Source of the DNA: Patescibacteria group bacterium
GTDB lineage: Bacteria; Patescibacteriota; UBA1384; JBAYJO01
DNA: 64,000 nt
NCBI GenBank assembly: GCA_041665085.1
Contig: JBAYJO010000004.1
Span: forward strand, 20,004 to 84,003
Reading direction: 5' to 3'
The notes beneath the pieces were generated by a model that was not told the origin of the DNA, searched no databases, and worked only from the letters and a program-made list of their open reading frames with translations. The position numbers were made by a program, and so were the translations under genes. Every line of letters starts with the position of its first letter. Within the stretch, counting starts at the first letter, position 1. Of the stretch, positions 9,001 through 50,790 are shown in pieces.

Positions 9001-9877
9001 TACATCAGGTTTGCCACGAGTTGAAGAATTGTTTGAAGCTCGAACTCCAAAAAGACCGGCAGTTATCGCTGAAATTGGCGGTGTTTGCCGAATAAATGAA
9101 GAAAAAGATAGCAATATTATTACAATTCAGTCAACGCAAATAATGTGTGAAGAATATAAAGTTACAAAAGATTACAATATTACTGTTAAAAATGGTGATG
9201 TTGTTAAGCCGAAACAAGCAGTTGCAATTTCACATGGTAAAAAAGCTATTAGAACTGGAATTCATGGCAAAATTAAACTTATAAACGACAAAATCATTAT
9301 CGAAAGCAATGAACCTGTTATCAAGCAATACAATATTCCAACCAATGTTGAGATCATTGTTAAGAATGGCCAGGATCTTAAAGCCGGTGATATTTTAACA
9401 GAAGGTCATCTGGAGCTTAGCGAATCAATCAAGTATCGAGGAGTTGAAGAAACTCAAAGATATATAATCAAAAATATTCAGGAAATTTATTCATCGCAAG
9501 GTCAGGCAATTAACGACAAACACGTTGAAATGATTCTAAAGCGAATGTTTGCTAAAGTTAAAGTTACCGAGCCGGGAGATTCTGATTTATTGCCAGGCCA
9601 AATTATGGATAAAAAACATGCTTCAACAATGGAAAAAGAGTTAAAGGGAAAAAGCAAAAAACATATGCCTCAATATGAAGAAATCGTTATGGGTATTTCT
9701 CGTGTTGCTCGAAGTTCTGATTCATTCCTATCTGCTGCATCATTTATTGAAACAACAAGAGTCTTAATTGATGCTGCTGCTCGAGGTGCAATTGATAATC
9801 TTCAAGGCTTAAAAGAAAATGTTATTATCGGTAAGTTGATTCCAGCTGGAACAGGATTTAAAAAAGGAATAGAATAA
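6098..9877 (+). CDS. rpoC: DNA-directed RNA polymerase subunit beta'
   Basis: 1259 aa with the NADFDGDQMAVH catalytic motif and a zinc-binding CxxC...CxxC N-terminus. Confidence 0.97.
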   Translation: MSILNIQNQKNSSPKSETKMLDFDGLAISIASPEQIEDWSFGEVLRPETINYRTQKPERDGLFCERIFGPTKDYECYCGKYKKIRYKGIICDKCGVEVTKSIVRRDRMGHIALSVPVTHIWYVHGIPSLLSMVLDISSHDLIKVIYFASFIILGVDEKVRADILDQLEKEFEERKADKKKMSEPEFAKIELLYKQTKSEIMSFAPKMTLSEAKYFDISLKYGALIKVSIGAEAIYNLLKGLDVEKECESLLQEIDLAISTQKRKLSKRYKTLKNFQNAGIKPEWLVTTKLPIIPPDLRPMVQLDGGRYASSDLNDLYRRVINRNNRLKRLLNQGSPEVIVRNEKRMLQEAVDALIDNAARRGRTAATGTTQRKLRSLSDMLRGKQGRFRQNLLGKRVDYSGRSVIVVGPHLKLNQCGIPKVMALELFKPFVISKLISEGYVHNVKNATKLIEKREAIVWDVLERITINAYVLLNRAPTLHRLGIQAFKPVLIEGKAIQIHPLVCAAFNADFDGDQMAVHVPLSKQAYEEAANIMCADKNLLKPSSGEPIVTPDKDIILGCYYLTVTVPGAKGEGKIFSTIDEAMSAYQQDLVALGAIIKVMINEEVIETTIGRIIFNEKVPSEMGFVNTDMDKSKLKHLIRGIYDKIGTEATAIFVDDVKELGFEYASISGITFAIDDLIIPSQKNALIAEGDEQFELLDKQYHRGLINDTEKSTQFTSLWQDIKSKIEKLIKEELVKPENVMNSVKMMIISGARGSYSQLTQVCGIKGLVLSPTGEVIELPIKGNYKEGLTGLEYFVSSHGARKGRSDTSLRTQDSGYLTRRMVDVSQDLVVNEVDCKSKSGITVSRLDSDDLDINFASRLAGRVSAVEILDPKSKSAIVKAGEEITDEQAKIIEESGITEIIARSPIHCKSEKGVCQKCYGRDLATGKTIKLGEAAGIMAAQAIGEPGTQLTLRTFHTGGVAATDITSGLPRVEELFEARTPKRPAVIAEIGGVCRINEEKDSNIITIQSTQIMCEEYKVTKDYNITVKNGDVVKPKQAVAISHGKKAIRTGIHGKIKLINDKIIIESNEPVIKQYNIPTNVEIIVKNGQDLKAGDILTEGHLELSESIKYRGVEETQRYIIKNIQEIYSSQGQAINDKHVEMILKRMFAKVKVTEPGDSDLLPGQIMDKKHASTMEKELKGKSKKHMPQYEEIVMGISRVARSSDSFLSAASFIETTRVLIDAAARGAIDNLQGLKENVIIGKLIPAGTGFKKGIE

Positions 9878-9997: not shown

Positions 9998-10417
9998 ATG
10001 CCAACAATCAATCAATTAGTAAAAAATGGTAGAAAGAAAATAATTAAAAAAGACAAAACACCCGCGCTTGGTCAAACTTTTAATTTTCTTAAAAATAGAC
10101 CGGTCAAATTTGATAAGGGTTCTCCTTTCAAAAGAGGTGTTTGCACTAAGGTTACAACAGTAACACCTAAAAAACCTAACTCTGCTCTTAGAAAAATCGC
10201 AAGAGTAAAATTGACCAATGGATATGAAGTAACAGCTTATATTCCAGGAATTGGTCATAATCTTCAAGAACACTCTGTTGTGATGATTAGAGGCGGTAGA
10301 GTTAAAGACTTGCCGGGAGTCCGGTATCATATCGTTCGAGGTGTTCTTGATACTGAAGGTGTAAAAGATCGTAAACAGGGCAGAAGCCGTTATGGAGCTA
10401 AGAAAGGTAAAGAGTAG
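9998..10417 (+). CDS. rpsL: 30S ribosomal protein S12
   Basis: [14 protein letters not shown]...[10 protein letters not shown] is a classic S12. Confidence 0.97.
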
Positions 10418-22220: not shown

Positions 22221-22535
22221 ATGGTAAAGAAAGTAATGCATAATTCAAAATTAAACAACAAAGAAAGAGCTATTTTGGCTGTTAAAAGAACCAATAAGCA
22301 TATTTATTGTGATATTGTAGATCAAAATACCGGTCTTGTTCTAGATTCTGCATCTGATGCTGATATTAAAACAGGTACAAAAACAGAAAAATCAGCTGAA
22401 GTAGGAAAACTTGTTGCAAATCTTGCTAAAGAGCATAATATTACAAAAGTAGTTTTTGATAGAAAAGGTTACAAATTTCATGGTCGAGTTAAAATGCTGG
22501 CAGACAGTGCTAGAAAAAATGGATTGGAGTTCTAA
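22221..22535 (+). CDS. rplR: 50S ribosomal protein L18
   Basis: L18 family similarity. Operon position fits. Confidence 0.9.
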   Translation: MVKKVMHNSKLNNKERAILAVKRTNKHIYCDIVDQNTGLVLDSASDADIKTGTKTEKSAEVGKLVANLAKEHNITKVVFDRKGYKFHGRVKMLADSARKNGLEF

Positions 22536-23206
22536 TGGCTAATTATACCGCACAAGAAAAACAATTGCCGGAATTTGAAGAAAAAGTTTTAGAAATTAAT
22601 AGAATTTCAAGAACTGTTAAAGGTGGACGAAGATTAAGATTTCGTGCCTTAGTTTTGGTTGGAAATAGAAAAGGCAAAGTCGGTTTTGGTATAGCCAAAG
22701 CTTCAGAAGTTGTTGTTGCTATAAATAAAGCAAAAAAACAGGCTATGAAAAATATTATTTTAGTTCCAATTGTAAACGATACAATCCCACATCTAGTTAC
22801 AGCTTCGTTTGGTAGCTCGGATATATTACTTAAACCTGCTCCAGTTGGTACTTCATTAATTGCCGGCGGTTCGATCAGAAGCATTTTGGAAATTGCTGGA
22901 ATTAAAAATATTGTTTCAAAATCTCTTGGCAGCAATACTAAGATTAATGTTGTATCTGCAACATTTAAAGCAATTCTAGCATTAAAAATTGGCAACAATA
23001 CAAAAAAATCTGTCAAAGCAGAAGATGAAAAACAAAAAGAAATAAAATCTGAAGAAACTAAAGCTGAAGCAGTAAAGCCAATTAAAAAAGCTACAAATTC
23101 AACAGATAAAGAAAAATCAACCAAAGAAGTAAAAACAGAAAAATTATTACCAAAAGAGACTGCTGCGAAAAAACCTAAGGTTGAGAAAATAACCAAGAAA
23201 AAATAA
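22535..23206 (+). CDS. rpsE: 30S ribosomal protein S5 with K/E-rich C-terminal extension
   Basis: S5 core plus a roughly 70-aa K/E tail. It is directly followed by rplO, with no rpmD (L30) gene between. Confidence 0.93.
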   Translation: MANYTAQEKQLPEFEEKVLEINRISRTVKGGRRLRFRALVLVGNRKGKVGFGIAKASEVVVAINKAKKQAMKNIILVPIVNDTIPHLVTASFGSSDILLKPAPVGTSLIAGGSIRSILEIAGIKNIVSKSLGSNTKINVVSATFKAILALKIGNNTKKSVKAEDEKQKEIKSEETKAEAVKPIKKATNSTDKEKSTKEVKTEKLLPKETAAKKPKVEKITKKK

Positions 23207-23217
23207 AAGGATTTGCA

Positions 23218-23646
23218 ATGAGAATAGATGAATTAAAACCATTTGATAAAAAGAAATCATCCAAAAGAGTTGGGCGAGGTATTGGTAGTGGTAAAGGAAA
23301 AACATCAACTCGTGGTATGAGTGGACAAAAATCCAGGTCAGGTTTTAATTTGTCGTGGAATTTTGAAGGCGGACAATCAACACTAGGATCTAGACTTCCT
23401 AAAAGAAGAGGAATTGGTTCATGTTTAAGAAAATATCAATCATTAAATATTAAACTTGTTGAAAGTAAATTTACAGAAAAAGAAGAAATAAATCCCGAAG
23501 CGCTTGTTTTAAAAGGATTAATTAAAAATACAAAACTACCAGTCAAAATTTTTGGTCAAACCGATAAAGTATATATTATTAAAAACTGTCGAGTTACAAA
23601 AAGTCTATTACAATTAGTAAAGGCAGAAGATGCTAAAAAAGCTTAG
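23218..23646 (+). CDS. rplO: 50S ribosomal protein L15
   Basis: L15 family similarity (GRGIGSGKGKTSTRG). Confidence 0.93.
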   Translation: MRIDELKPFDKKKSSKRVGRGIGSGKGKTSTRGMSGQKSRSGFNLSWNFEGGQSTLGSRLPKRRGIGSCLRKYQSLNIKLVESKFTEKEEINPEALVLKGLIKNTKLPVKIFGQTDKVYIIKNCRVTKSLLQLVKAEDAKKA

Positions 23647-24967: not shown

Positions 24968-25696
24968 ATGAAAAAACCAATTTTAACTCTTTTGATAATT
25001 ATTATTGCGGGCTTAACTGTCAGTACTAGCTATTTTTATAATCAGTCGAAAAAATCGCCAAATACAAATACTGGATTAACAAATATCACACCTGATCAAA
25101 CTGAAAACGAAAATATAAATCAATCCTTATCAAATATAAATACTAATACAAATAGTTTAAATCAAAATTCTAATACAAATATATCTACTGACGGTGAAGT
25201 TTCTCCAGCTGTAAATAAAAATCGTGCCTCAAATCCGGAAAAAACATATCAAGTAAAATCAGGTGAAACTTTATATCCGATTGGTTTAAAATTCAATTTA
25301 GATTGGAACTATATCGCCCGCGCCAATGGACTTGAAGATTCCAATAGTATTAAAGCTAATTCAGTATTGGTTATTCCGATTTATGATACTGATTCTAAAA
25401 AACTATCAGTCAATTATTCAGTTGATCAAGCTAAAGCAGATGAACTTCAAAAAAATATTTCAACTGGAAAAGAAACATGGAGACTTGATCCGATTGAAGT
25501 TGCAAAAAAAGAATCATATCCTTGTTTCGGTTTTAGTAGTAATGATACATACACTTTAGCGAGCAAAAGTGAAGAAAAAGGAATCGCTCAAATTAGTGTA
25601 GTTAAAAATAATATTAGTTATGAAATAGGGCTTACAGAGCCAGCAACAAAAGGAGCAGATGGTATTTGGACAATAAGTTATATAAAGGAAATATAA
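24968..25696 (+). CDS. secreted/membrane-anchored LysM-domain protein with N/T/S-rich linker
   Basis: N-terminal hydrophobic anchor. LysM signature YQVKSGETLYPIGLKFNLDWNYIARANGL...SVLVIP. Confidence 0.7.
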   Translation: MKKPILTLLIIIIAGLTVSTSYFYNQSKKSPNTNTGLTNITPDQTENENINQSLSNINTNTNSLNQNSNTNISTDGEVSPAVNKNRASNPEKTYQVKSGETLYPIGLKFNLDWNYIARANGLEDSNSIKANSVLVIPIYDTDSKKLSVNYSVDQAKADELQKNISTGKETWRLDPIEVAKKESYPCFGFSSNDTYTLASKSEEKGIAQISVVKNNISYEIGLTEPATKGADGIWTISYIKEI

Positions 25697-26334
25697 TGGT
25701 AAAAGATTTAATAATATTAATCGGACCGCCAGCATCAGGCAAAGGAACTCAAGGAAAAATAATTTCAGATCACATTAAGTATGAATATTTTGCTATGAGC
25801 CAAGCTATTGATGAATTTATTGAGGCAAATCCAAGCAGAAAAGACGAAATTAGATCATTTATTAATTCGGGACAATTAGTTCCAGATTCTACAATTGAAG
25901 AAATAATTGCCTATAAATTTTCTAATTCCGAATCAGGTGTTGTAACAGATGGTTTTCCTCGAACAATTGAACAAGCAAAATTTTTAGATAAAAATTTTAA
26001 TGATATAACAAAGCGCGTTTTTTATTTAAATTTAAAGGATGATTCAGTTATTTCAAGAATCGAAGGAAGACGAGTCTGCTCCAGCTGTAATAACATTTTT
26101 TTTCCTCCCGAAAGCCTAACTCTTGCTAACTGTCCTCAATGCAACGGTAAAATTATTCAAAGACTCGATGATAATATTGAAACTGTAAAAATAAGACTGC
26201 AAAAATATCACGAAGAAACTGAACCTTTAATCGAATATTACAAAGAGCAAGACAAATTAATCAAAATTGACGCAGAACCTTCAATCGAACAAATTACAGA
26301 AAATATTTTGGATTATTTGGAAAATGCTAAATAA
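25696..26334 (+). CDS. adk: adenylate kinase (zinc-lid type)
   Basis: P-loop GPPASGKGTQ. Lid CSSCNNIFFPP...CPQC. Start is ATG at 25696, overlapping the upstream stop (TAATG). Confidence 0.95.
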   Translation: MVKDLIILIGPPASGKGTQGKIISDHIKYEYFAMSQAIDEFIEANPSRKDEIRSFINSGQLVPDSTIEEIIAYKFSNSESGVVTDGFPRTIEQAKFLDKNFNDITKRVFYLNLKDDSVISRIEGRRVCSSCNNIFFPPESLTLANCPQCNGKIIQRLDDNIETVKIRLQKYHEETEPLIEYYKEQDKLIKIDAEPSIEQITENILDYLENAK

Positions 26335-26350
26335 AGATAAATACAAATCA

Positions 26351-27064
26351 ATGAAAACAGGCGGCAAATATCTTGCCGAGATTTTAAGTATCTTATCAGA
26401 AAAAATAAAACCAAATATTAGTACTCAAGATATCGAAAATTGGACCATTGAATTTCTTAAGAAAAATGATATTAAATCTGCATTTCTCGGATTTGGCGGC
26501 TATCCAAAAAATATTTGTGTATCGATAAATGATGAAATTGTTCATGGAGTACCAAATTCAAATAAAATAATCCATGATGGAGATTTAGTCTCGCTTGATA
26601 TGGGAATTAATTATAATGGTTACATGACAGATATGGCAACAACTGTTGCTGTTGGAAAAATAACAGATGAGGAAAAAAGACTGCTTGAAGGAACTGAAAT
26701 GGCCCTAACTCGTGTCATATCAGAAATAAAAACAGGTGATAGAGTTGGTAAAATAGGCCAAATTATTGCTCAAACAGCAAAAGAATATAACTTAAAAATA
26801 ATTTATGAATTAACAGGCCACGGAGTCGGTAAAAAATTACACGAAGATCCGATTGTTTACAATTATGGCAATGAAAACAACGGACCGATTCTTAATGAGG
26901 GCGCTACAATTGCAATTGAGCCTATGTTTTCACTTGGAAGTTCCAAAATTATTACCAAATCTGACAAATGGACTTATTCAACTCAAGACGGTTCAAAAGC
27001 AGCGCATTTTGAAAAAACCATTATGTTTATGAAAAATGGAGTGGAAGTTTTAACTAAAATGTAG
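26351..27064 (+). CDS. map: methionine aminopeptidase type I
   Basis: MetAP fold residues (HGVPNS..., DMG, HGVGKKLHE, IEPMF). ATG at 26351 is preferred over the track ORF start 26267, which would overlap adk. Confidence 0.9.
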   Translation: MKTGGKYLAEILSILSEKIKPNISTQDIENWTIEFLKKNDIKSAFLGFGGYPKNICVSINDEIVHGVPNSNKIIHDGDLVSLDMGINYNGYMTDMATTVAVGKITDEEKRLLEGTEMALTRVISEIKTGDRVGKIGQIIAQTAKEYNLKIIYELTGHGVGKKLHEDPIVYNYGNENNGPILNEGATIAIEPMFSLGSSKIITKSDKWTYSTQDGSKAAHFEKTIMFMKNGVEVLTKM

Positions 27065-27100
27065 TTTAATAATAATGTAATATAATTAATAGGAGGCAGT

Positions 27101-27277
27101 ATGACATGTAGTACATGTGGCAAAGAAATTACAGAGGAAACTAAGTGTAGTTGCGATGAGACAAAGTGTAGCGATTGTTGCGAATGTGAAGAAGGATGCA
27201 GTTGTGGATGTAAAGACAAGAAGAACGAATCAGCTGAAACAGAAGAAGACACAGAAGAGTCAGACGAAACAGAATAA
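27101..27277 (+). CDS. 58-aa Cys-rich metallothionein-like small protein (11 Cys, acidic tail)
   Basis: RBS AGGAGG 5 nt upstream of ATG. Product is MTCSTCGKEITEETKCSCDETKCSDCCECEEGCSCGCKDKKNESAETEEDTEESDETE. A strong hairpin follows at 27294-27345. Absent from the ORF track only because it is under 60 aa. Confidence 0.6.
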   Translation: MTCSTCGKEITEETKCSCDETKCSDCCECEEGCSCGCKDKKNESAETEEDTEESDETE

Positions 27278-27293
27278 AGAAATTTAACAATAA

Positions 27294-27345
27294 ATACACT
27301 CAAACAGGCCCTATTTAACCAAATTGGGGCTATGTTTGAGTGTAT
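27294..27345 (+). terminator. Long hairpin ATACACTCAAACAGGCCC / GGGGCTATGTTTGAGTGTAT after the Cys-rich ORF
   Basis: Stem of about 18 bp with a 14-nt loop. A promoter-like TTGCAC-N17-TAATAT follows, upstream of infA. Confidence 0.45.
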
Positions 27346-27432
27346 AAATTGAAAAAGAGATAAAATAGAGCAAATGAACCATAAAAACACTTGCACAAAT
27401 TCAAAGCATATGATAATATATAAATACAATTA

Positions 27433-27645
27433 ATGAAAAAAGATTTTATTGAGTTAACAGGTTTGGTTACCGAGGCATTGCCAAATGCTATGTTTCGAGT
27501 TGAGCTTGAAAACAAAGAAATAATAATCGGCCATATTTCCGGTAAAATGCGATTGCATAGCATTCGAATCTTACCTGGCGATAAGGTATTAGTAGAGCTA
27601 ACCCCCTATGACTTGTCAAAGGGAAGAATAACTCGAAGATTATAA
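27433..27645 (+). CDS. infA: translation initiation factor IF-1
   Basis: 70 aa with an S1-like fold (GHISGKMR...[21 protein letters not shown]). Confidence 0.95.
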
Positions 27646-41379: not shown

Positions 41380-42933
41380 ATGGCAAAAAATAATAGTGCT
41401 AATGTGGGATTTGAAGAAAAACTTTGGGCGGCGGCTGATAAAATGCGCGGATCAATGGATCCGGCAGAATATAAGCACGTTGTTCTCGGACTTATTTTCT
41501 TGAAATATATTTCCGATTCATTTGAAAAGCGTCGACAAGATGTGATTAAGGAAGATGGGGAAGAATTTGTTGATGATCACGACGAATATACAATGAAAAA
41601 TGTTTTTTGGGTACCTATGATCGCACGCTGGTCAAATATTCGTGACAATGCCAAAAAATCAGAGATCGGTAAGCTGATCGACGATGCTATGTATGCCATT
41701 GAAAAAGAAAACTCTGACCTCAAAGGTGTACTTCCAAAAGACTATGCTCGCCCCGCGCTAGACAAACAACGATTGGGTGGTGTTATAGACATCATTTCCC
41801 AAGTTGACCTTCTTGAAAGTAATGGCAAAGATGTTCTCGGTCGAATTTATGAATATTTTCTTGGCCGATTTGCCGGCAGTGAAGGTAAGGGCGGTGGTGA
41901 ATTCTACACTCCACAATGCATTGTTAAACTACTCGTTGAAATGATTGAACCATACAGCGGCCGCGTTTATGATCCATGTTGTGGTAGCGGAGGCATGTTT
42001 ATTCAGTCAGAAATGTTCAACCGTAATCACGATGGCAAAAAAGATGACATGATTGTCTATGGTCAGGAATCAAATCATACCACATGGCGACTTTGTAAAA
42101 TGAATCTAGCCCTTCGTCACATTGACAGCTCAAATATAAAAAACGGTAACAGTTTCCACAATGATTCCCACCCGGATCTAAAAGCTGATTTTGTTTTAGC
42201 AAATCCACCTTTTAATGATAGTGACTGGGATGGCCAGCTTCTGCGAAACGATGTTCGCTGGAAATACGGCTTACCCCCAACTGGCAGTGCTAACTATGCT
42301 TGGATCCAGCACTTCATTTATCATCTCGCACCAACTGGCATCGCAGGTTTTGTAATGGCCAACGGCGCCATGTCATCTAATAGTTCCGGTGAAGGTGAAA
42401 TTCGCGCCAACCTAATTAAAGCGGGGCTTGTCGACTGTATTGTCGCCATGCCGGACAAATTGTTCTATTCGACTGGAATTCCATGTTCACTATGGTTTGT
42501 TTCGCGTGACAGATACGATCATAAATTTCGCAACCGTCATGACGAAATCCTCTTTATTGATGCTCGCAAAATGGGCACAATGGTTGACCGCCGCCATCGT
42601 GAGCTGACCGATGAAGATGTTAGAACTATCTCCGAGACATATCATAACTGGCGAAACCTTTCCCCCTCTGTCATCCCGAGCGAAGCCGAGGGATCCTTTA
42701 AATACGAAGACAAAAAAGGCTTCTGTAAGGCTGCCAAAATCGAAGAAGTTGAGAAAAATGGCTATGTCTTAACTCCCGGGCGTTATGTCGGCACAGAACT
42801 TGTCGAAGAGGATGACGAAGTTTTTGAAGAAAAAATGCAGCGGCTCACCGCGGAACTAAACCAGCAATTCGTCCAGTCCAAAGAATTAGAGGAAAAAATT
42901 AAAGAAAACCTTAAAAAAGTTATTGAAAATTAG
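41380..42933 (+). CDS. hsdM: type I restriction-modification system N6-adenine DNA methyltransferase subunit
   Basis: HsdM N-terminal domain. SAM motif [12 protein letters not shown]. Catalytic NPPFN. Confidence 0.92.
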
Positions 42934-42975
42934 ATTATTTATATTATCAATTTAGCCTGTATTTGATAATAAGTC

Positions 42976-43004
42976 TTGACATATTTGCAAATGTCAAATA
43001 TAAT
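42976..43004 (+). promoter_or_regulatory. Consensus sigma70 promoter TTGACA-N17-TATAAT embedded in the near-palindrome TTGACATATTTGCAAATGTCAA
   Basis: TTGACA at 42976-42981 and TATAAT at 42999-43004, 30 bp upstream of the fic ATG. Confidence 0.6.
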
Positions 43005-43033
43005 GGATATACTATTAACAGGAGTTTGCAAAA

Positions 43034-44164
43034 ATGAATAAAGAATATTCAGCAGGTCAATACATACAACAAAATGAATACAAGAGCTTTAGACCATCTT
43101 TAATAAATGGTGATTTTTCATGGAAAGAGAAAAAAATTAATGTTCTCCTAGAAGAAGCTACTAGGTTTCTTGGAGAGCTAAATGCATATTCCAAATTAAT
43201 ACCTGATGTAAATTTTTTCATAAAAATGAATGTGGCCAAGGAAGCCATTACATCCAGCCGCATTGAAGGAACAAAAACCCAAATTGACGAGGCATTATTG
43301 CCTCAAGAAGAAATTGACCCAGAAAAAAGAGATGATTGGGCTGAAGTTCAAAACTATATAAAAGCTATGAATTTCTCTATAGAGGAGCTAAAAAAAATTC
43401 CTCTATCAACAAGACTCATGAAAGAAGCACACAAAATTCTTCTTTCTGGAGTCAGGGGTAAATATAAAACACCCGGAGAATTAAGAACATCACAAAACTG
43501 GATTGGAGGATCCAATTTGAGTGATGCCTTTTTTGTTCCGCCTCACCATACAGAACTTCCAGATCTTTTAACTGACTTGGAGAAATTTTGGCATAATCGT
43601 GAATTAGAAATTCCTCAACTGATTAAAATTGCTATCAGCCATTATCAGTTTGAAACAATCCATCCATTTTTAGACGGTAACGGTAGAATCGGAAGATTAT
43701 TAATCACATTGCAACTGGTTGAACTAGGGTTTTTAGATAAACCCACTCTTTACCTTTCTGACTTTTTTGAAAAAAACAGAACATCCTACTACGACTCACT
43801 TTCAATGGTGAGGCAGACAAACGACATAGAACAATGGATCAAGTTTTTTCTCAATGGAATCATTCATACTTCAAAAAATGGAAAAGAAACTTTTGAAAAA
43901 ATCGTTACACTTCGTCAAAGCTATGAGAGTAAAATCATGAGATTAGGATCCAGAGCTAAAACCGGCCAAGAGTTAATGCTGGCATTATTTTCTAATCCCA
44001 TCATGAATTTAAATCAAATATCGGAAAAATTAGATATTTCTTATGCTACCGCAAACCGGCTGATATCTGATTTTGAAAAATTCAACATTGTCAGAGAAAT
44101 GACCGGTTTTTCAAGGAATAGATTATTTGTAATGGATGAGTATTTGAATTTATTTAAGAGGTAG
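43034..44164 (+). CDS. fic: Fic/DOC family protein (AMPylation motif [12 protein letters not shown]; inhibitory SxxxEG motif present)
   Basis: [14 protein letters not shown] is the canonical Fic motif HxFx(D/E)GNGRxxR. TSSRIEGT resembles the auto-inhibitory helix. C-terminal wHTH-like region. Confidence 0.88.
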
Positions 44165-44184
44165 AAACCAAAAGTAGGAAATCG

Positions 44185-44982
44185 ATGCAAAATGAGGAAA
44201 AACTAAACACAACTAATAATATTTCGGCCCCCATCGGCTTAGATTACTTTAGTGGGGTGAGTTTGTATTTACAGTTGTTTGTGAATTCCCAACACTTAGG
44301 CCAAGCAACCGGATTTGTTATCGAAAACAATAATAAAAAATATCTTATTGCTAATTGGCATGTAGTATCAGGTAGAGATACAATTACAGGTAAGCCGTTA
44401 TCAAAAACCGGTGGTCTTCCAGACAAAATAAATATTGCACACCACTCTAGTAGTGACTTTGGCACATGGTGGTTTATAAACGAGCCATTATATGATGGAG
44501 AAAAGCAGCTTTGGCTAGAGCATCCTAAGAGTACAGAATCGAACAGGATAGATGTTGTTGTGCTGCCTCTCACAAGGACAGAAGAGAAACTTGCTTTCGT
44601 CCCCCTAAACCTAAATCTCGCTAAATCAGATATGGTGGCACATCCTGCTCAAACAGTTTCAATTATTGGGTATCCGCTCGGCTTAAGCGCTGATGATAAA
44701 GTTCTCATTCCGATATGGAAAACGGGGCATATCGCTTCAGATGTAGAGTTAAATGAGAATTTCTTCCTAATTGACGCGACAACGAAAAGTGGAATGTCGG
44801 GTTCTCCAGTAATTATGCGTTCTTCAGGGGGATTTCAGACAAAAAATGGCTCCTGGATAATGGCAATGGCAGGGATGAGAGAGTTATTTCTGGGTGTATA
44901 TTCCGGAAGAATCCACGAACTTTCAGAAATAGGGAAAGTTTGGAAACCCAAACTGATCGAGGAAATATTAAATGCAAGATAA
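44185..44982 (+). CDS. cytoplasmic trypsin-like serine protease (chymotrypsin fold)
   Basis: No signal peptide. Putative triad His in ANWHVVSG, Asp in RIDVVVLPL, Ser in GMSGSPV. Confidence 0.55.
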   Translation: MQNEEKLNTTNNISAPIGLDYFSGVSLYLQLFVNSQHLGQATGFVIENNNKKYLIANWHVVSGRDTITGKPLSKTGGLPDKINIAHHSSSDFGTWWFINEPLYDGEKQLWLEHPKSTESNRIDVVVLPLTRTEEKLAFVPLNLNLAKSDMVAHPAQTVSIIGYPLGLSADDKVLIPIWKTGHIASDVELNENFFLIDATTKSGMSGSPVIMRSSGGFQTKNGSWIMAMAGMRELFLGVYSGRIHELSEIGKVWKPKLIEEILNAR

Positions 44983-46123
44983 CCAGACAAAATTTAAAGA
45001 AACTGAAGTTGGACTGATCCCGGAGGGTTGGGGGGTTTTGAAATTCGGGGATGTATCAAATTTTCGTTACGGAAAGATGCCAGAAAAAAACAAAATTACT
45101 TCAACAGGCTATCCGATATACTCTGGTTACAGAGTGGTCGGGAATTATTCTGAATGTATGTGTACCCAACCCAAGCTGATTATCGTGGCAAGAGGTGTTG
45201 GCGGCACAGGCGATGTAAAAATTTCACCACCAAATTGTTGGGTAACAAACTTGAGTATAATTGCTGATCTAGATGAAAAAATAATAAATAAACAATTTCT
45301 AAAATATTATTTTCACAGGGGTTTAAAAAGATTTGATAGTGGATCCGCTCAATCGCAGATCACAATAGGCGACTTAAATAATATCGAGTTAACATTGCCA
45401 CCCATCGAAGAGCAGCGAAAGATTGCGGAGGTTTTGGGGGCGCTGGATGATAAAATTGAATTGAATCGGAAAATGAATAAAACCCTCGAATCCATCGGCC
45501 AAGCCATTTTCAAACATACCTTTCGTCATTCTGAGCAAACCGAAGAATCTCTTAAACCGTTATCGGAATTCGGTCAAATCGTTTGTGGTAAAACTCCTTC
45601 GAAAGCCAAGTCGGAATATTTTGGCGGAGAAATACCCTTCATTAAAATTCCTGATATGCACGGACAAACTTTCATTCTAAAAACCGAGGATTCGTTAACC
45701 GAAGAGGGAAAAAATAGTCAGCCGAATAAAACAATCCCCACTGGTTCGATTTGTGTAAGTTGTATTGCTACGGTTGGACTAGTCTCAATCACTGAAAAGA
45801 ATTCACAAACAAATCAGCAGATAAATTCGATCGCTCCCTTTAAAAAAGAACTTACTTATTATTTGTATTTTTCTTTGAAGGAAATCGAGCAAGACATTAA
45901 AGATATGGCGAGTGGCGGCTCGGCGACACTAAATTTGAACACTGGTCATTTTTCAAATATTAAAATTGTTATGCCGGAGGATGAAGACTTGCATCGATTT
46001 GATAAAAAAATAAAACCACTCTTCGACCAAATTTTAAATAACATGAAACAAATCGAAACTTTATCGAAAATCCGCGATTCCCTATTACCAAGATTAATGA
46101 ATGGAAAGTTGAGATTGGGATGA
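44972..46123 (+). CDS. hsdS: type I restriction-modification system specificity subunit
   Basis: Two TRDs separated by the conserved LPPIEEQRKIAEVLGALDDKIELNRKMNKTLE. Overlaps the protease gene by 11 bp. Confidence 0.9.
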   Translation: MQDNQTKFKETEVGLIPEGWGVLKFGDVSNFRYGKMPEKNKITSTGYPIYSGYRVVGNYSECMCTQPKLIIVARGVGGTGDVKISPPNCWVTNLSIIADLDEKIINKQFLKYYFHRGLKRFDSGSAQSQITIGDLNNIELTLPPIEEQRKIAEVLGALDDKIELNRKMNKTLESIGQAIFKHTFRHSEQTEESLKPLSEFGQIVCGKTPSKAKSEYFGGEIPFIKIPDMHGQTFILKTEDSLTEEGKNSQPNKTIPTGSICVSCIATVGLVSITEKNSQTNQQINSIAPFKKELTYYLYFSLKEIEQDIKDMASGGSATLNLNTGHFSNIKIVMPEDEDLHRFDKKIKPLFDQILNNMKQIETLSKIRDSLLPRLMNGKLRLG

Positions 46124-46947
46124 AAAACCATGAAAAAGTTTTAGCTTTAACTCATAAAATCGTAATCACCGATGAATTCGAAAACAGAGTTAAGAAAGAA
46201 ATTATTGAACCAGTATTAGATCAGATGACTTTTACAGCGTTAAATTTTCAAAAATCAGATCCTAATAGCAAACTATCGATTGCTGAAAAATTTTTTCTTG
46301 ATGTAGACAAAGTTGTTTTTAGATTGTTGCAGTGCCATAAACACCAAAAGAATTATGACATTATAGAATCAGAAAGGATTAAGGAGCTGAACGCTGACAT
46401 ACAAAAAACAACAAAGTTTATTGATGAGTGTTGGAGGCCGCTCGAATTAAATTGTGAAATTGATGCATTTCTAACTAAGTGGAAATCGTCACTTGATGCT
46501 TTAGCTAAAACATTAATCCCTCTTTATGGGATAAACTCTAAGACATGGAGCGATAAAGGAAAAAAAATAATTAATCAGTTAAACAATTTATCAGCAGAAA
46601 AAGTTAAAAAAATACAACCATTGATTAACATTATTGAAGAAAATAAGGGTCAGATTGGTTCAATAATTGATCTAAGAGATAAAGTTGTACATTATGATAC
46701 TGAATGTTTAACACCTTTTCACTACAGGCTCAAAGAGAAAAAACTTCATAACCCAAGTTTAATATGGGATGGCAATGTCTATATGCCCCAAGACTTCATG
46801 ACACAAGCATCTGAGTATTTACTAGATTTCACGAGGGAGTTTATCGTTAAATCTATAAATGGTTTTGTTGAGGCTTTGTATATTGTCGTCACAACCGACG
46901 GTCACCAATGGTTTATGCCACCAGATAAGATCAAGGAGTCGAAATGA
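46120..46947 (+). CDS. hypothetical protein embedded between hsdS and hsdR; possible HEPN-like (Rx4H) domain
   Basis: 275 aa, mostly helical by composition. RDKVVH fits Rx4-6H. 4-bp overlaps with both neighbours. Confidence 0.5.
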
Positions 46948-49900
46948 AATACACTGAATCGTCATTAGAAGAAGCGACTAGGGAATGGTTTGAGGAACTT
47001 GGCTATCAAGTCATTTATGGGCCGGATATTGAGCCGGAAAGTGAAAAACCGGAGCGAAAGGATTTTTCACAAGTGGTTTTGGAAGGAAGGCTCCGATCTG
47101 CAATCGAAAGAATAAATTCTGATATTCCGGCTGATGCTCTGGATGAAGCTTTTAAAAAAGTTGTAAATGTAACTCATACCACATCGCTTTTGGTGTCGAA
47201 TAATCAGATATTCCATAAATATTTAGTTGGCGGTGTTGATGTTGAATATCAAAGAAAAGACGGCTCTATTGCAGGCGATAAAGTTTGGCTCGTTGATCGA
47301 AAAAATATTGAGAATAATGATTGGGTTTGGCTTAATCAGTTTACAATTGTAGAAAATAGTAATCGTCGACCGGATGTCGTTATTTTTGTGAACGGTTTGC
47401 CACTGGCCGTTTTTGAACTAAAGAATTTAGCAGATGAAAATGTTGGTATTAAAGAAGCATTTAATCAGATTCAAACCTATAAACAAGATATTCCATCACT
47501 ATTTGCTTACAATGAACTAGCAATTATTTCCGATGGCCCGGAGGCAAAAATCGGATCCATTACTTCTGACACAGATCGCTTTATGCGCTGGAGAAGTGTT
47601 GATGGGGCAGAATTAGCATCTGACGTAATTCCTCAACTTGAAGTATTGATTAAAGGGGTTTTTGATAAAGAGCGATTGCTTGATTTGATTTGCAATTTTA
47701 GTGTTTTTAACACGATCAAGAAAGATTCGGAAGAAAAAATTATTAAAATCATCCCGGCCTATCATCAATATTTTGCAACAAATAAAGCCTTAGAAAGCAC
47801 ATTGGCGGCTACTTCTGAAAATGGTGACAGGCGCGCCGGAGTGGTGTGGCATACTCAAGGAAGTGGCAAGAGTTTGACGATGGCTTTTTTTGCCGGCAAG
47901 TTAATTGATCGACTGAATAATCCGACTATCGTCGTTTTGACAGATAGGAATGATTTGGATGATCAGCTTTTTGATACATTTTCAAAATGTAAAGATTTAT
48001 TGAAACAAAAACCGGTCCAAGCAGCCAATCGTAAACATTTACGCGAGCTTTTGAAAGTTGCGAGTGGCGGAGTAGTATTTACAACAATTCAGAAATTTTT
48101 GCAAAAAGGATTTCTGGACAAAATGCTTTTAACTGGTCGGCGCAATGTGGTGGTGATTGCCGATGAAGCGCACAGAAGCCAATATGATTTTATAGATGGC
48201 TTTGCCAGAAGCATGCATGAAGCATTGCCGAATGCGTCATTTATTGGTTTTACCGGAACCCCGCTTTCTTCTGCTGACAAAGACACCGAGCGAGTTTTTG
48301 GCAAATATGTTGATGTTTATGACATTACTCAAGCAGTGGCCGACAAAGCGACGGTGCCGATTTATTATGAAGCCAGATTGGCGAAAATTAATTTGCTTGA
48401 ATCAGAAAAACCAAAAATCGATGCAGATTTTAATGATATTACAGAAGATGAAGAACCAGAAATGGTTGAGAAGTTAAAAAGCAAATGGGCGCGGCTTGAG
48501 GCGATGGTTGGAAGCGACAAAAGAATTAAGCAAATCGCCAAAGATGTGGTAGAGCATTTTGGAAATAGGCAAAATGTAATGAATGGCAAGGGCATGATCG
48601 TGGTAATGAGTCGAAGAATCGCCACTGATTTGTATGATGAAATTATTAAATTAAAACCGGAGTGGCACCAAGACTCAAATGAAAAAGGATTTTTGAAAGT
48701 TGTGATGACCGGTTCGGCCTCTGATCCTTTAAATTTTCAAAGGCATATTCGTAACAAAGAAGAACTACACAAAATGGCAGATCGAATGAAAGATCCAGAA
48801 AACGAATTACAGCTCGTGATTGTGCGTGATATGTGGCTGACTGGTTTTGATGTGCCGAGTTTGCATACGATGTATATTGATAAGCCAATGAAAGGTCATG
48901 GTCTAATGCAGGCGATCGCTAGAGTTAATAGAGTTTATAGAGATAAACCAGGTGGTCTGATTGTTGATTATTTGGGTATTGCACCACAATTGAAAGAAGC
49001 ATTGGCGGATTATTCTCAAAAAGATCAGGGGAACACTGCCATTGATCAGGAAGCAGCGGTTTCTGTGATGCTAGAGAAATTTGAAGTGATGCAGGGAATG
49101 TTTCATGATTTTAATTATGTAAAGTATTTCAAAATGAGCGCTTCACAGAAAACAAGCTTTTTTGGTGATGCAATGGAATTTGTTTTGACGCTTGATCCAG
49201 TTGACGATGAAGCGAAGAAAAGATTTGTCAAAGCAGTGACAGAATTATCTAAAGCATTTGCTCTGGCTGTACCGCATGAAAAAGCACTTGCGATTAAAGA
49301 TCATGTCGGATTTTTCCAAGCACTGCGGGCGCATGTAAAGAAATTATCACCTGTAAATGGTCCAACTGAAGAAGATTATGACATGGCAATTAAACAGATC
49401 GTTTCTGATTCGATCGCTTCGGGTGAGATTATTGATGTATTTACTGCAGCCGGGCTAGATAAGCCGATGGTTTCAATTTTGTCCGATGAGTTTTTGGAGG
49501 AAGTGAGAGGACTTGGCAGACAAAATGTTGCTTTGGAAATATTAAAAAAATTATTGAATGACGAGATTAAATCTTTTATGCGAAAAAATGTTGTAAAGGG
49601 GCGATCGTTTTCAGACATGCTAGAAAAAACGATTAAGGCTTATCAAAATCGAACCATTGAAGCAGCACAAGTTATTTCTGAACTGATCAAATTAGCAAAA
49701 GAACTCCGGGGAGAAGTTGAAAGAGGAGCGGAAACTGGACTGTCAGATGACGAGATCGCTTTTTATGATGCTCTAGCCGATAATGAGAGCGCAAAATTGG
49801 AGCTTGGCGATGAAACATTGAAAAAGATCTCTCGGGAATTGGTTCAGATGATGCGGGAGAACACGACAATTGATTGGACTTTACGAGACAGTGTAAAAGC

Positions 49901-50030
49901 CAAGATGAGAATATTTATTAAAAAATTATTGAAAAAATATGACTATCCGCCAGACAAACAAGAAGGCGCGACGCAGTTGGTATTATTACAGGCAGAAACC
50001 GTTTGTAAGGATTGGGTAGGAAAGGAATAA
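46944..50030 (+). CDS. hsdR: type I restriction enzyme R subunit (helicase/endonuclease)
   Basis: N-terminal nuclease domain. SF2 helicase motifs ([12 protein letters not shown] in [11 protein letters not shown]). Confidence 0.93.
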
Positions 50031-50031
50031 C

Positions 50032-50790
50032 ATGTCCGAATATTACAAAGCAAATCGAACAAGAAATATATTTGATCCGAAAACTCAAGAAGTTTTTAAA
50101 CTAAGTCGGTCGAAATTAGAACTTTTTACCGAATGTCCACGCTGTTTTTATATTGATCGCCGGCTCGGAGTCGGCAGACCTCCCGGATTTCCATTTAACC
50201 TAAATACAGCAGTTGATACCTTGCTCAAAAAGGAATTTAATATTCATCGCGCAAAAGGGGAGACTCATCCGCTGATTGAAAAATATGATGTTGACGCTCG
50301 ACCGGTTCCGCATGAGAGCTTGGACAAATGGCGAGAAAACTTTGTTGGCATTCAGTATTTACACAAACCAACCAATCTAATGATCACCGGTGCAATTGAT
50401 GACCTTTGGATCAATTCAAAGGGTGAATATATAGTCGTAGATTACAAATCAACCAGCAAAGAAGAAGAAATTACAGCGCTCGACAAAGACTGGCACGATG
50501 GATACAAACGCCAGATGGAAATATACCAGTGGCTCCTTAGAAAAAATGGACTAAAAGTATCAAATACCGGTTATTTTGTTTATTGCAACGGACGAACTGA
50601 TCTTGAGGCATTTGACGCGAAACTAGAATTTGATATTACTTTAATTCCATATATTGGCAACGACTCTTGGATTGAAAAAACCATCGCTGATGCACATATC
50701 TGCCTTTGCTCTGATTCTATTCCCGAAGCTAACCCAGAATGTGATTATTGCAATTACATCGAAGCCATTCAAGAAATTAATAAAATATAA
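50032..50790 (+). CDS. PD-(D/E)XK nuclease with 4-Cys cluster (Cas4/RecB-nuclease-like, DUF83-like)
   Basis: N-terminal CPRC. GAIDDLW...VVDYKS (D...D-x-K). C-terminal CLC...CDYC. Starts 2 bp after the hsdR stop. Confidence 0.5.
   Translation: MSEYYKANRTRNIFDPKTQEVFKLSRSKLELFTECPRCFYIDRRLGVGRPPGFPFNLNTAVDTLLKKEFNIHRAKGETHPLIEKYDVDARPVPHESLDKWRENFVGIQYLHKPTNLMITGAIDDLWINSKGEYIVVDYKSTSKEEEITALDKDWHDGYKRQMEIYQWLLRKNGLKVSNTGYFVYCNGRTDLEAFDAKLEFDITLIPYIGNDSWIEKTIADAHICLCSDSIPEANPECDYCNYIEAIQEINKI

Follow-up and report, generated by a model that had tools for sequence, protein, structure and literature searches.

The window analysed here, a stretch of 64 kb with a G+C content of 0.344, covers the rpoBC, str, S10, spc and alpha ribosomal-protein operons, in which no known ribosomal-protein leader was recognised, together with other translation genes, aaRS genes, helicases, cell-wall enzymes and a type I R-M island. 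Between map and infA, in a run in which Pfam identifies adk, map, infA and rpmJ, lies a small ORF whose 58-aa product (MTCSTCGKEITEETKCSCDETKCSDCCECEEGCSCGCKDKKNESAETEEDTEESDETE) carries cysteines at residues 3, 6, 16, 18, 23, 26, 27, 29, 33, 35 and 37, followed by a tail (residues 38–58) in which 11 of 21 residues are aspartate or glutamate (Table 1). The position and translation of this ORF are identical to those given in the initial annotation, which had also described 11 cysteines followed by an acidic tail, an AGGAGG ribosome-binding site and a location between map and infA; all of these descriptions hold, the cysteines falling within residues 3–37. The ORF had further been called unannotated, which is correct as regards a name or domain and incorrect as regards gene calling, as it had previously been called by a gene caller on a 99.6 kb ENA metagenome contig (ERZ27249449 k141_127604), where it is nameless and without a Pfam match. 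A complete AGGAGG stands 5' of just two of the 65 long ORFs in the window, and 50 shuffles of the window yielded no ORF of 50–80 aa with at least nine cysteines. Both GC (0.395) and GC3 (0.29) of the small ORF lie inside the range of the window genes and thus give no sign of recent foreign origin.

Table 1. Positions of the small ORF and surrounding features in the window
Feature	Position	Strand	Evidence or remark
map, type I methionine aminopeptidase	26324..27064	+	Pfam Peptidase_M24, E=6e-40; called as a 246-aa gene
148-aa antisense ORF	26983-27429	-	covers the hairpin, the end of map and all of the Cys-rich gene between them
Shine-Dalgarno sequence AGGAGG	27091..27096	+	read from sequence; 4 nt 5' of the small-ORF ATG
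CDS of 58-aa Cys11 mini-protein	27101..27277	+	ATG start, stop codon included; translation, homologues, purifying selection
Cys-rich core, residues 3-37	27107..27211	+	C-x2-C-x9-C-x-C-x4-C-x2-CC-x-C-x3-C-x-C-x-C
Poly-acidic C-terminal tail, residues 41-58	27221..27274	+	poorly ordered in prediction, pLDDT ~56
Long stem-loop	27294..27345	+	16 nt 3' of the stop codon; likely transcript 3' end or stabiliser
infA promoter-like element	27391..27419	+	TTGCAC, 17 nt, TGaTAATAT; 13 nt before the infA ATG at 27433

The 36 nt between the map stop codon and the small ORF contain no hairpin and no convincing promoter, and the two genes are probably co-transcribed. Given this short gap without a convincing promoter, we infer that the small ORF is the last cistron of a secY-LysM-adk-map unit and that the stem-loop beyond it is the 3' end of that unit. 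The stem-loop, which has a stem of ~20 bp interrupted by one bulge and a loop of 11 nt, folds with a dG of -30.6 kcal/mol (z = -7.8); none of 200 shuffles folds as well, and it is unique in the window rather than a repeated element. A long hairpin of about 18 bp had been noted at this place initially and is indeed present, at slightly greater length; the accompanying claim that it gives the ORF its own terminator is doubtful. Of the two features of an intrinsic terminator, a GC-rich stem and a U-tract behind it, the hairpin has the first, whereas the sequence 3' of it (AUAAAUUGAAAAAG) has no U-tract; it thus departs from the canonical form and goes unreported in the terminator scan. Taken together with the lack of a convincing promoter in the gap after map, the missing U-tract indicates that the hairpin probably closes the whole upstream operon. 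Canonical terminators do follow homologues of the small ORF at two other loci (L032 and L028).

The map/infA junction in related genomes

Few sequenced relatives of the organism exist: the three best homologues of the window Map protein are 59%, 56% and 60% identical to it and all others at most 47%, a Candidatus Taylorbacteria protein (47% identity) being among the best named matches; a scan of GTDB genomes with the same query returned distant Bacteroidales map genes only. The locus with the 59% identical Map (L017) has the same LysM-adk-map-infA-rpmJ order and a map-infA gap of 131 bp, in which there is no ORF and no significant hairpin. At the loci with the 56% identical Map (L018 and L019) the junction is occupied by an unrelated ORF of 162 aa (L019:5879-6367, identical in L018), which has a CPQC...CCDEKEC arrangement and no Pfam match, and which is followed by a hairpin of its own (z -3.3). 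The description of the small ORF as inserted between map and infA is therefore borne out, as the junction is free of ORFs in the nearest relative. The initial annotation had also proposed looking for the same small ORF at this junction in related genomes, where it was not found: tblastn detected no copy of the peptide in 7.5–10.7 kb of DNA from the two nearest Map relatives, and none of the 40 homologues described below lies between map and infA (0/40). The position of the small ORF in the window is a lineage-specific accident and not a conserved feature, and since an unrelated insert is found at the same place in L018 and L019, the junction looks like an insertion hot spot.

About 45 bases 5' of infA align in the window, L019 and L017 (window 27391-27432, L019:6445-6486 and L017:2636-2677). 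Common to all three is a TTGCA hexamer followed, after ~17 nt, by TGATAATAT or a close variant; in the window this element lies below the threshold of the consensus scan, its -35 hexamer matching at 3 of 6 positions only. The element ends only 13 nt before the infA ATG and no Shine-Dalgarno sequence can be seen there, which suggests that the infA mRNA has a very short leader or is near-leaderless. Because infA has its own conserved promoter-like element, the map/infA junction appears to be an operon boundary in this lineage, and one that tolerates insertions, which would account for the arrival of different small genes at this place. A gene run that is considered to be conserved universally would thus contain a lineage-specific operon boundary open to insertions.

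Several further features of the window and of the related loci were noted. A LysM-domain protein of 242–256 aa is encoded between secY and adk (window 24968-25696, + strand), and this insertion, unlike the Cys-rich ORF, is kept in all three related genomes (L017:438-1172, L019:3605-4375). The rpmJ gene (L36) at L019:6696-6809 is nearly identical to the window copy and is uncalled on both L018 and L019, making it another small ORF missed by annotation. The window adk (25666-26334) encodes a CSSC...CPQC lid of the four-Cys zinc-lid type; Adk, Map and L36, whose genes surround that of the Cys-rich protein, are all metal-dependent or Zn-binding, which may quite possibly be coincidence. A gap of 11 nt separates the S5 gene (22535-23206) from an L15-like ORF, which has a KRVGRGIGSGKGKTSTRG motif and no Pfam match at E<=1e-3, and there is no L30 gene between them (window 23206-23218); succession of S5 and L15 without L30 is a hallmark of CPR/Patescibacteria. 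Together with the low G+C content, the Candidatus Taylorbacteria protein among the best named Map matches and the size of the contigs that bear homologues (see below), it points to a probable origin in CPR/Patescibacteria. The type I R-M island (41380-50790, + strand) consists of hsdM, Fic/DOC, a trypsin-like peptidase, hsdS, a 275-aa ORF and hsdR, followed by a PD-(D/E)XK nuclease, and the placing of Fic and a protease between hsdM and hsdS is an unusual arrangement. A tRNA scan and an Rfam search at gathering score returned nothing in window 1-64000.

The Cys11 family

A word-indexed homology search with the single peptide gave no match. An exhaustive HMMER search of 1.84 billion representatives returned three small proteins (53–64 aa, 49–52% identity), to which a profile search added a fourth (P0124), and the 90% clusters of these four database proteins contain eight further variants. 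A degenerate-pattern scan built on the alignment found 37 loci in JGI metagenomes; contigs bearing homologues measure 0.5–0.8 Mb. The total of 40 relatives corresponds, with the window copy, to 38 unique peptides of 41–78 aa, which form 11 groups at 60% identity. The window copy is a singleton among these, its nearest relative being ~55% identical. No relatives on viral contigs were found in a viral-contig scan.

All 11 cysteines are kept in 40 of the 40 relatives, within the family pattern C-x2-C-x8-11-C-x-C-x4-C-x2-CC-x-C-x3-C-x-C-x-C, and some members have one or two additional cysteines. In three relatives the first pair is CxC instead of CxxC, with all 11 cysteines still there; these are the three loci that a strict regex missed. 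Strict conservation extends to the spacing and to several non-Cys positions (T before C1, T21, D/G before C33, G36 and K40), and there is no conserved His across the family alongside the 11 invariant cysteines. Tails similar to that of the window protein, variable in length, occur in P0121 and in clade B, and most members have none. Close pairs with unsaturated synonymous sites (pS 0.05–0.55) show dN/dS values of ~0.03–0.3 and pN of 0.00–0.10. The initial annotation had made its reading depend on conservation of the reading frame in relatives, and this conservation is present, in 40 relatives with 11 cysteines and low dN/dS.

The small ORF almost certainly encodes a real protein. Alternatively, the frame could have arisen by chance within the infA leader or the map trailer, or the true gene could be the 148-aa ORF on the opposite strand, which is the longer of the two, and the nearest relatives do lack an ORF at the map/infA junction. 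Such explanations are hardly credible, however, as the 40 relatives preserve the frame and every one of its cysteines at low dN/dS, the ribosome-binding site is strong, shuffling produced no comparable ORF, the infA promoter-like element lies 3' of the hairpin, and the antisense ORF runs into the end of map and is missing from the gene calls; in effect, the conservation already refutes them. With selection acting on the + frame and no call in the antisense frame, the antisense ORF was rejected as spurious.

We found no literature describing such a protein, or combining metallothionein with 'candidate phyla radiation', and the Cys11 family appears to be a previously undescribed family of tiny 11-cysteine proteins of uncultivated bacteria. 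It also illustrates how largely conserved proteins of less than 60 aa are missing from protein databases, since four clusters out of 5.8 billion represent it there, against 37 loci recovered by scanning DNA.

Genomic context of the homologues

In clade A (L021, L023-L027, L029-L031 and L033) a ZIP transporter gene lies upstream of the peptide gene. The latter belongs to a same-strand string that runs from the peptide through DUF5652 (at some loci), a BNR-like protein and DUF498 to a Desulfoferrodox-type superoxide reductase (SOR) and continues with CsoR, an HMA P-type ATPase and DsbD; this string has been kept through several rearrangements. Elsewhere the peptide gene comes immediately after an ABC ATPase and an ABC-3 metal permease (L050, L053, L061 and L063), 1.3 kb from a CopA-like ATPase (L055) or 1.5 kb upstream of an SOR gene (L060). 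When clade A is counted as one lineage, metal-transport genes lie within ~4 kb in ~3 of ~16 distinct contexts, which by a rough estimate is no more than marginally above chance; the ZIP, CsoR-CopA and ABC-3 neighbours thus lend some, though limited, support to a metal-related role. The genes of clade B follow an M23 peptidase, with XerC, FtsQ and aaRS genes nearby, and the neighbours at the remaining loci are GAPDH, histidine kinases, an ECF sigma factor or SIMPL. None of the ZIP, CsoR, CopA, ABC-3, SOR or DUF5652 genes is found in the 64-kb window. An ABC ATPase near many clade C genes was considered as a Zn transporter and rejected, as in L049 and L060 Pfam pairs it with an ABC-2 permease, which is not metal-specific, the ABC-3 type being confined to L050, L053, L061 and L063.

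The SOR genes of the clade A string and of L060 would fit an iron redox carrier, that is, a rubredoxin- or desulforedoxin-like Fe(Cys)4 protein or small Fe-S protein acting as electron donor to the clade A SOR, and the N-terminal C-x2-C-G knuckle and the later C-x2-C-C do recall rubredoxin and desulforedoxin ligand motifs. We nevertheless regard this role as improbable. Two to three genes separate the peptide gene from the SOR gene in clade A and the window has no SOR at all; the peptides have no Pfam rubredoxin, desulforedoxin or ferredoxin match at E<=1, their 11 invariant cysteines far exceed the four needed, and the aromatic core of rubredoxin is missing (0–1 aromatic residues).

Gene context likewise bears on whether the product could be a RiPP precursor or a disulfide-rich secreted peptide, since small size and richness in Cys, Ser and Thr give it a superficial likeness to lanthipeptide, ranthipeptide and SCIFF substrates. 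Radical-SAM, LanM/LanBC and YcaO maturase genes are absent from the ~16 contexts and from the annotated neighbourhoods, as are export genes from the ~16 contexts. NCBIfam, which presumably includes SCIFF-type models, gave no match at E<=10. No signal peptide was seen on reading the small peptide, nor is there a leader peptide, the core beginning at residue 2–9, and the number of cysteines is odd; a precursor of this kind is accordingly very improbable.

Possible regulatory and partner elements were seen in individual lineages. In clade A, CsoR-type GC-rich palindromes (e.g. ATACCCTCTAGGGGAGGGTAT) lie just 3' of TTGACA-type promoters, before csoR and the P-type ATPase gene (L024:9983-10003; L026 ~10280-10300; L023 ~9100-9120), and look like a recognisable copper operator. 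This type of palindrome is present at csoR and not upstream of the peptide gene, and no palindrome or k-mer is shared among all peptide-gene upstream regions across clades. At L047, L050, L053 and L063, in the lineage where the peptide gene follows the ABC-3 permease, an AT-rich palindrome (TTTTTATTGCGGTATAATAAAAA) overlaps a -10-like GGTATAAT at -33 from the peptide ATG, and may act as an operator particular to that lineage. A DUF5652 protein of 75–88 aa is encoded, at some of the clade A loci, on the same strand 17–22 nt 3' of the Cys11 gene (L026:8232-8498, L023:6182-6409 and L021:2306-2572; none in L024 or the window), and could be a partner of the Cys11 protein.

Fold, proposed function and known metallothioneins

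The product had at first been described as metallothionein-like, which stands as regards small size, cysteine content, motifs and scarcity of aromatics and does not stand as regards sequence kinship to SmtA/BmtA or the Pfam metallothioneins. The core is ~30% cysteine, with CxxC, CxC and CC motifs, and in composition and motif pattern the protein fits the operational description of a metallothionein (58 aa, 11 cysteines in 35 residues, no aromatics). In the window core, aromatic residues and His are absent and a single residue is hydrophobic, compared with family medians of four hydrophobic residues and one aromatic. The Metallothio_5 model (PF02067) scored 14.8 bits (E=0.032, residues 1-43), short of its gathering threshold of 25 bits, and matched 4 of 12 members at E<=1, a result most simply explained by cysteine composition. 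PF02069 (SmtA/BmtA) had no match at E<=1 in the window peptide or any of the 12 members, no Pfam family beyond Metallothio_5 matched the peptide or these members, and a profile search of all PDB sequences, among which we expect SmtA and the PflQ2 MT to be held, returned nothing relevant at E<=10. A comparison of the cysteine spacing with SmtA/BmtA metallothioneins, as suggested in the initial annotation, revealed a different spacing and no detectable sequence similarity. In the absence of any significant match in Pfam, NCBIfam or PDB, by sequence or by fold, the protein is not an SmtA/BmtA-type or other catalogued metallothionein.

AlphaFold2, given 12 sequences, predicts residues 1-30 with a pLDDT of 88–92, residues 31-40 with 79 and the tail with ~56, and a Foldseek search of the predicted structure against PDB returned non-significant LIM and RING zinc domains only (E 8–10, TM 0.25–0.31). 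A confident, ordered fold suits a structural Zn domain as well as it suits a buffer. The protein could thus be a structural zinc-cluster mini-domain without buffering function, in which two or three structural Zn ions, as in Zn3Cys9 CXC/pre-SET or LIM/RING domains, would hold a knot that binds a macromolecular partner (a protein, nucleic acid or the ribosome), with or without the tail, as a regulator or adaptor. Beyond the high AlphaFold2 confidence for a defined fold and the nature of the nearest, if non-significant, folds, this would accord with the strict conservation of the cysteine spacing and of several non-Cys positions, and with the housekeeping character of most contexts (M23 peptidase, XerC, FtsQ, aaRS, histidine kinases, and the ribosomal operon here); acidic tails, moreover, are typical interaction or mimicry modules. 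We consider it unlikely, however, since no partner gene is conserved across clades, 11 cysteines in 35 residues are denser than in usual structural Zn domains, the tail is missing in most members, and the window copy is strongly acidic, with no evident basic DNA- or RNA-binding surface.

It is quite probable, judging from sequence, that the Cys11 protein binds metal through its thiolates. That it is a cytoplasmic metal-thiolate cluster protein with a metallothionein-like role is a narrower proposal, to which we would give an even chance and which is the most likely of the readings considered; the protein would then work like a metallothionein while belonging to no catalogued metallothionein family. 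Because the core is almost without hydrophobic residues, the ~36 residues would become ordered only by wrapping their thiolates round metal ions. The confident AlphaFold2 prediction, the zinc domains among the nearest, non-significant folds, the odd number of cysteines and the lack of a signal peptide also accord with a metal-dependent fold. As 11 thiolates are too few for three separate Cys4 sites, the expected arrangement is a cluster in which thiolates bridge the metals (M(II)3-4 or several Cu(I), for instance). In the cytoplasm such a protein may buffer, store or detoxify soft metal ions (Zn or Cu), and the acidic tail would be an optional, disordered appendage.

In this genome, we propose, the gene was added by insertion behind map, as the last member of the secY-adk-map transcription unit, where the strong ribosome-binding site would drive its translation, the long hairpin would close the unit and infA would restart from its own promoter, so that the Cys11 protein, as the last product of a highly expressed housekeeping operon, may be synthesised constitutively. 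More tentatively, and with some doubt, it could found a metallothionein family of its own, which would be the first one described for uncultivated bacteria with small genomes (probably CPR/Patescibacteria); its all-Cys Cys11 cluster would converge on the ligand count of the mammalian alpha-domain, and its gene would have been captured here at the end of the ribosomal-protein/secY-adk-map operon. On that reading, a metal buffer would be produced in parallel with Zn- and metal-dependent translation proteins (Map, Zn-lid Adk and L36). By 2020, biological function had been investigated for no more than two bacterial metallothioneins, SmtA and MymT (PMC7387436). A third family, all-Cys and unrelated in sequence, in uncultivated bacteria with reduced genomes would widen the view of zinc or copper buffering in minimal cells, and the peptide is small enough (~40 residues) to be synthesised and examined directly.

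Among known systems, LIM, RING and Zn3Cys9 CXC domains are Cys-dense, metal-dependent folds and provide the nearest, non-significant Foldseek neighbours, but they are parts of larger eukaryotic proteins, whereas the Cys11 proteins are free-standing bacterial proteins of 41–78 aa. The Drosophila-type metallothioneins (PF02067) supply the sole family model with any signal, from unrelated taxa. MymT, the Cu(I) metallothionein of Mycobacterium, which has been linked to copper detoxification (PMC7387436), is likewise a small (~53 aa) Cys-rich bacterial protein, and some Cys11 homologues are found near csoR-copA; there is, however, no NCBIfam, Pfam or HMMER link between the two, and the Cys11 gene is without a CsoR-type operator.

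SmtA/BmtA proteins (PF02069; SmtA of Synechococcus and the PflQ2 MT of Pseudomonas) are comparable as small cytoplasmic bacterial proteins with ~9–11 metal ligands, for which one bridged cluster in a defined fold is expected. In Pseudomonas metallothioneins the C-terminal tail is disordered, and no metal-responsive regulator is encoded next to them (PMC7387436); the window protein likewise has a tail predicted to be poorly ordered, and no such regulator adjoins its gene. The ligand sets of SmtA and PflQ2 are Cys9His2 and Cys9His, respectively (PMC7387436), whereas the Cys11 family has 11 cysteines and no conserved His, a different cysteine spacing and no SmtB-like repressor nearby.

In number of cysteines the family agrees with the mammalian metallothionein alpha-domain. 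The latter forms an M(II)4Cys11 cluster and, as in the Cys11 core, contains 11 cysteines within a similar length (~31-36 residues), in CxC, CxxC and CC motifs and with no aromatics. The order and spacing of the motifs differ, and the Cys11 proteins are single-domain bacterial proteins with no Pfam Metallothio or PDB MT match, but the shared cysteine count, length and motifs motivate the hypothesis that they too may hold an M4S11 cluster.
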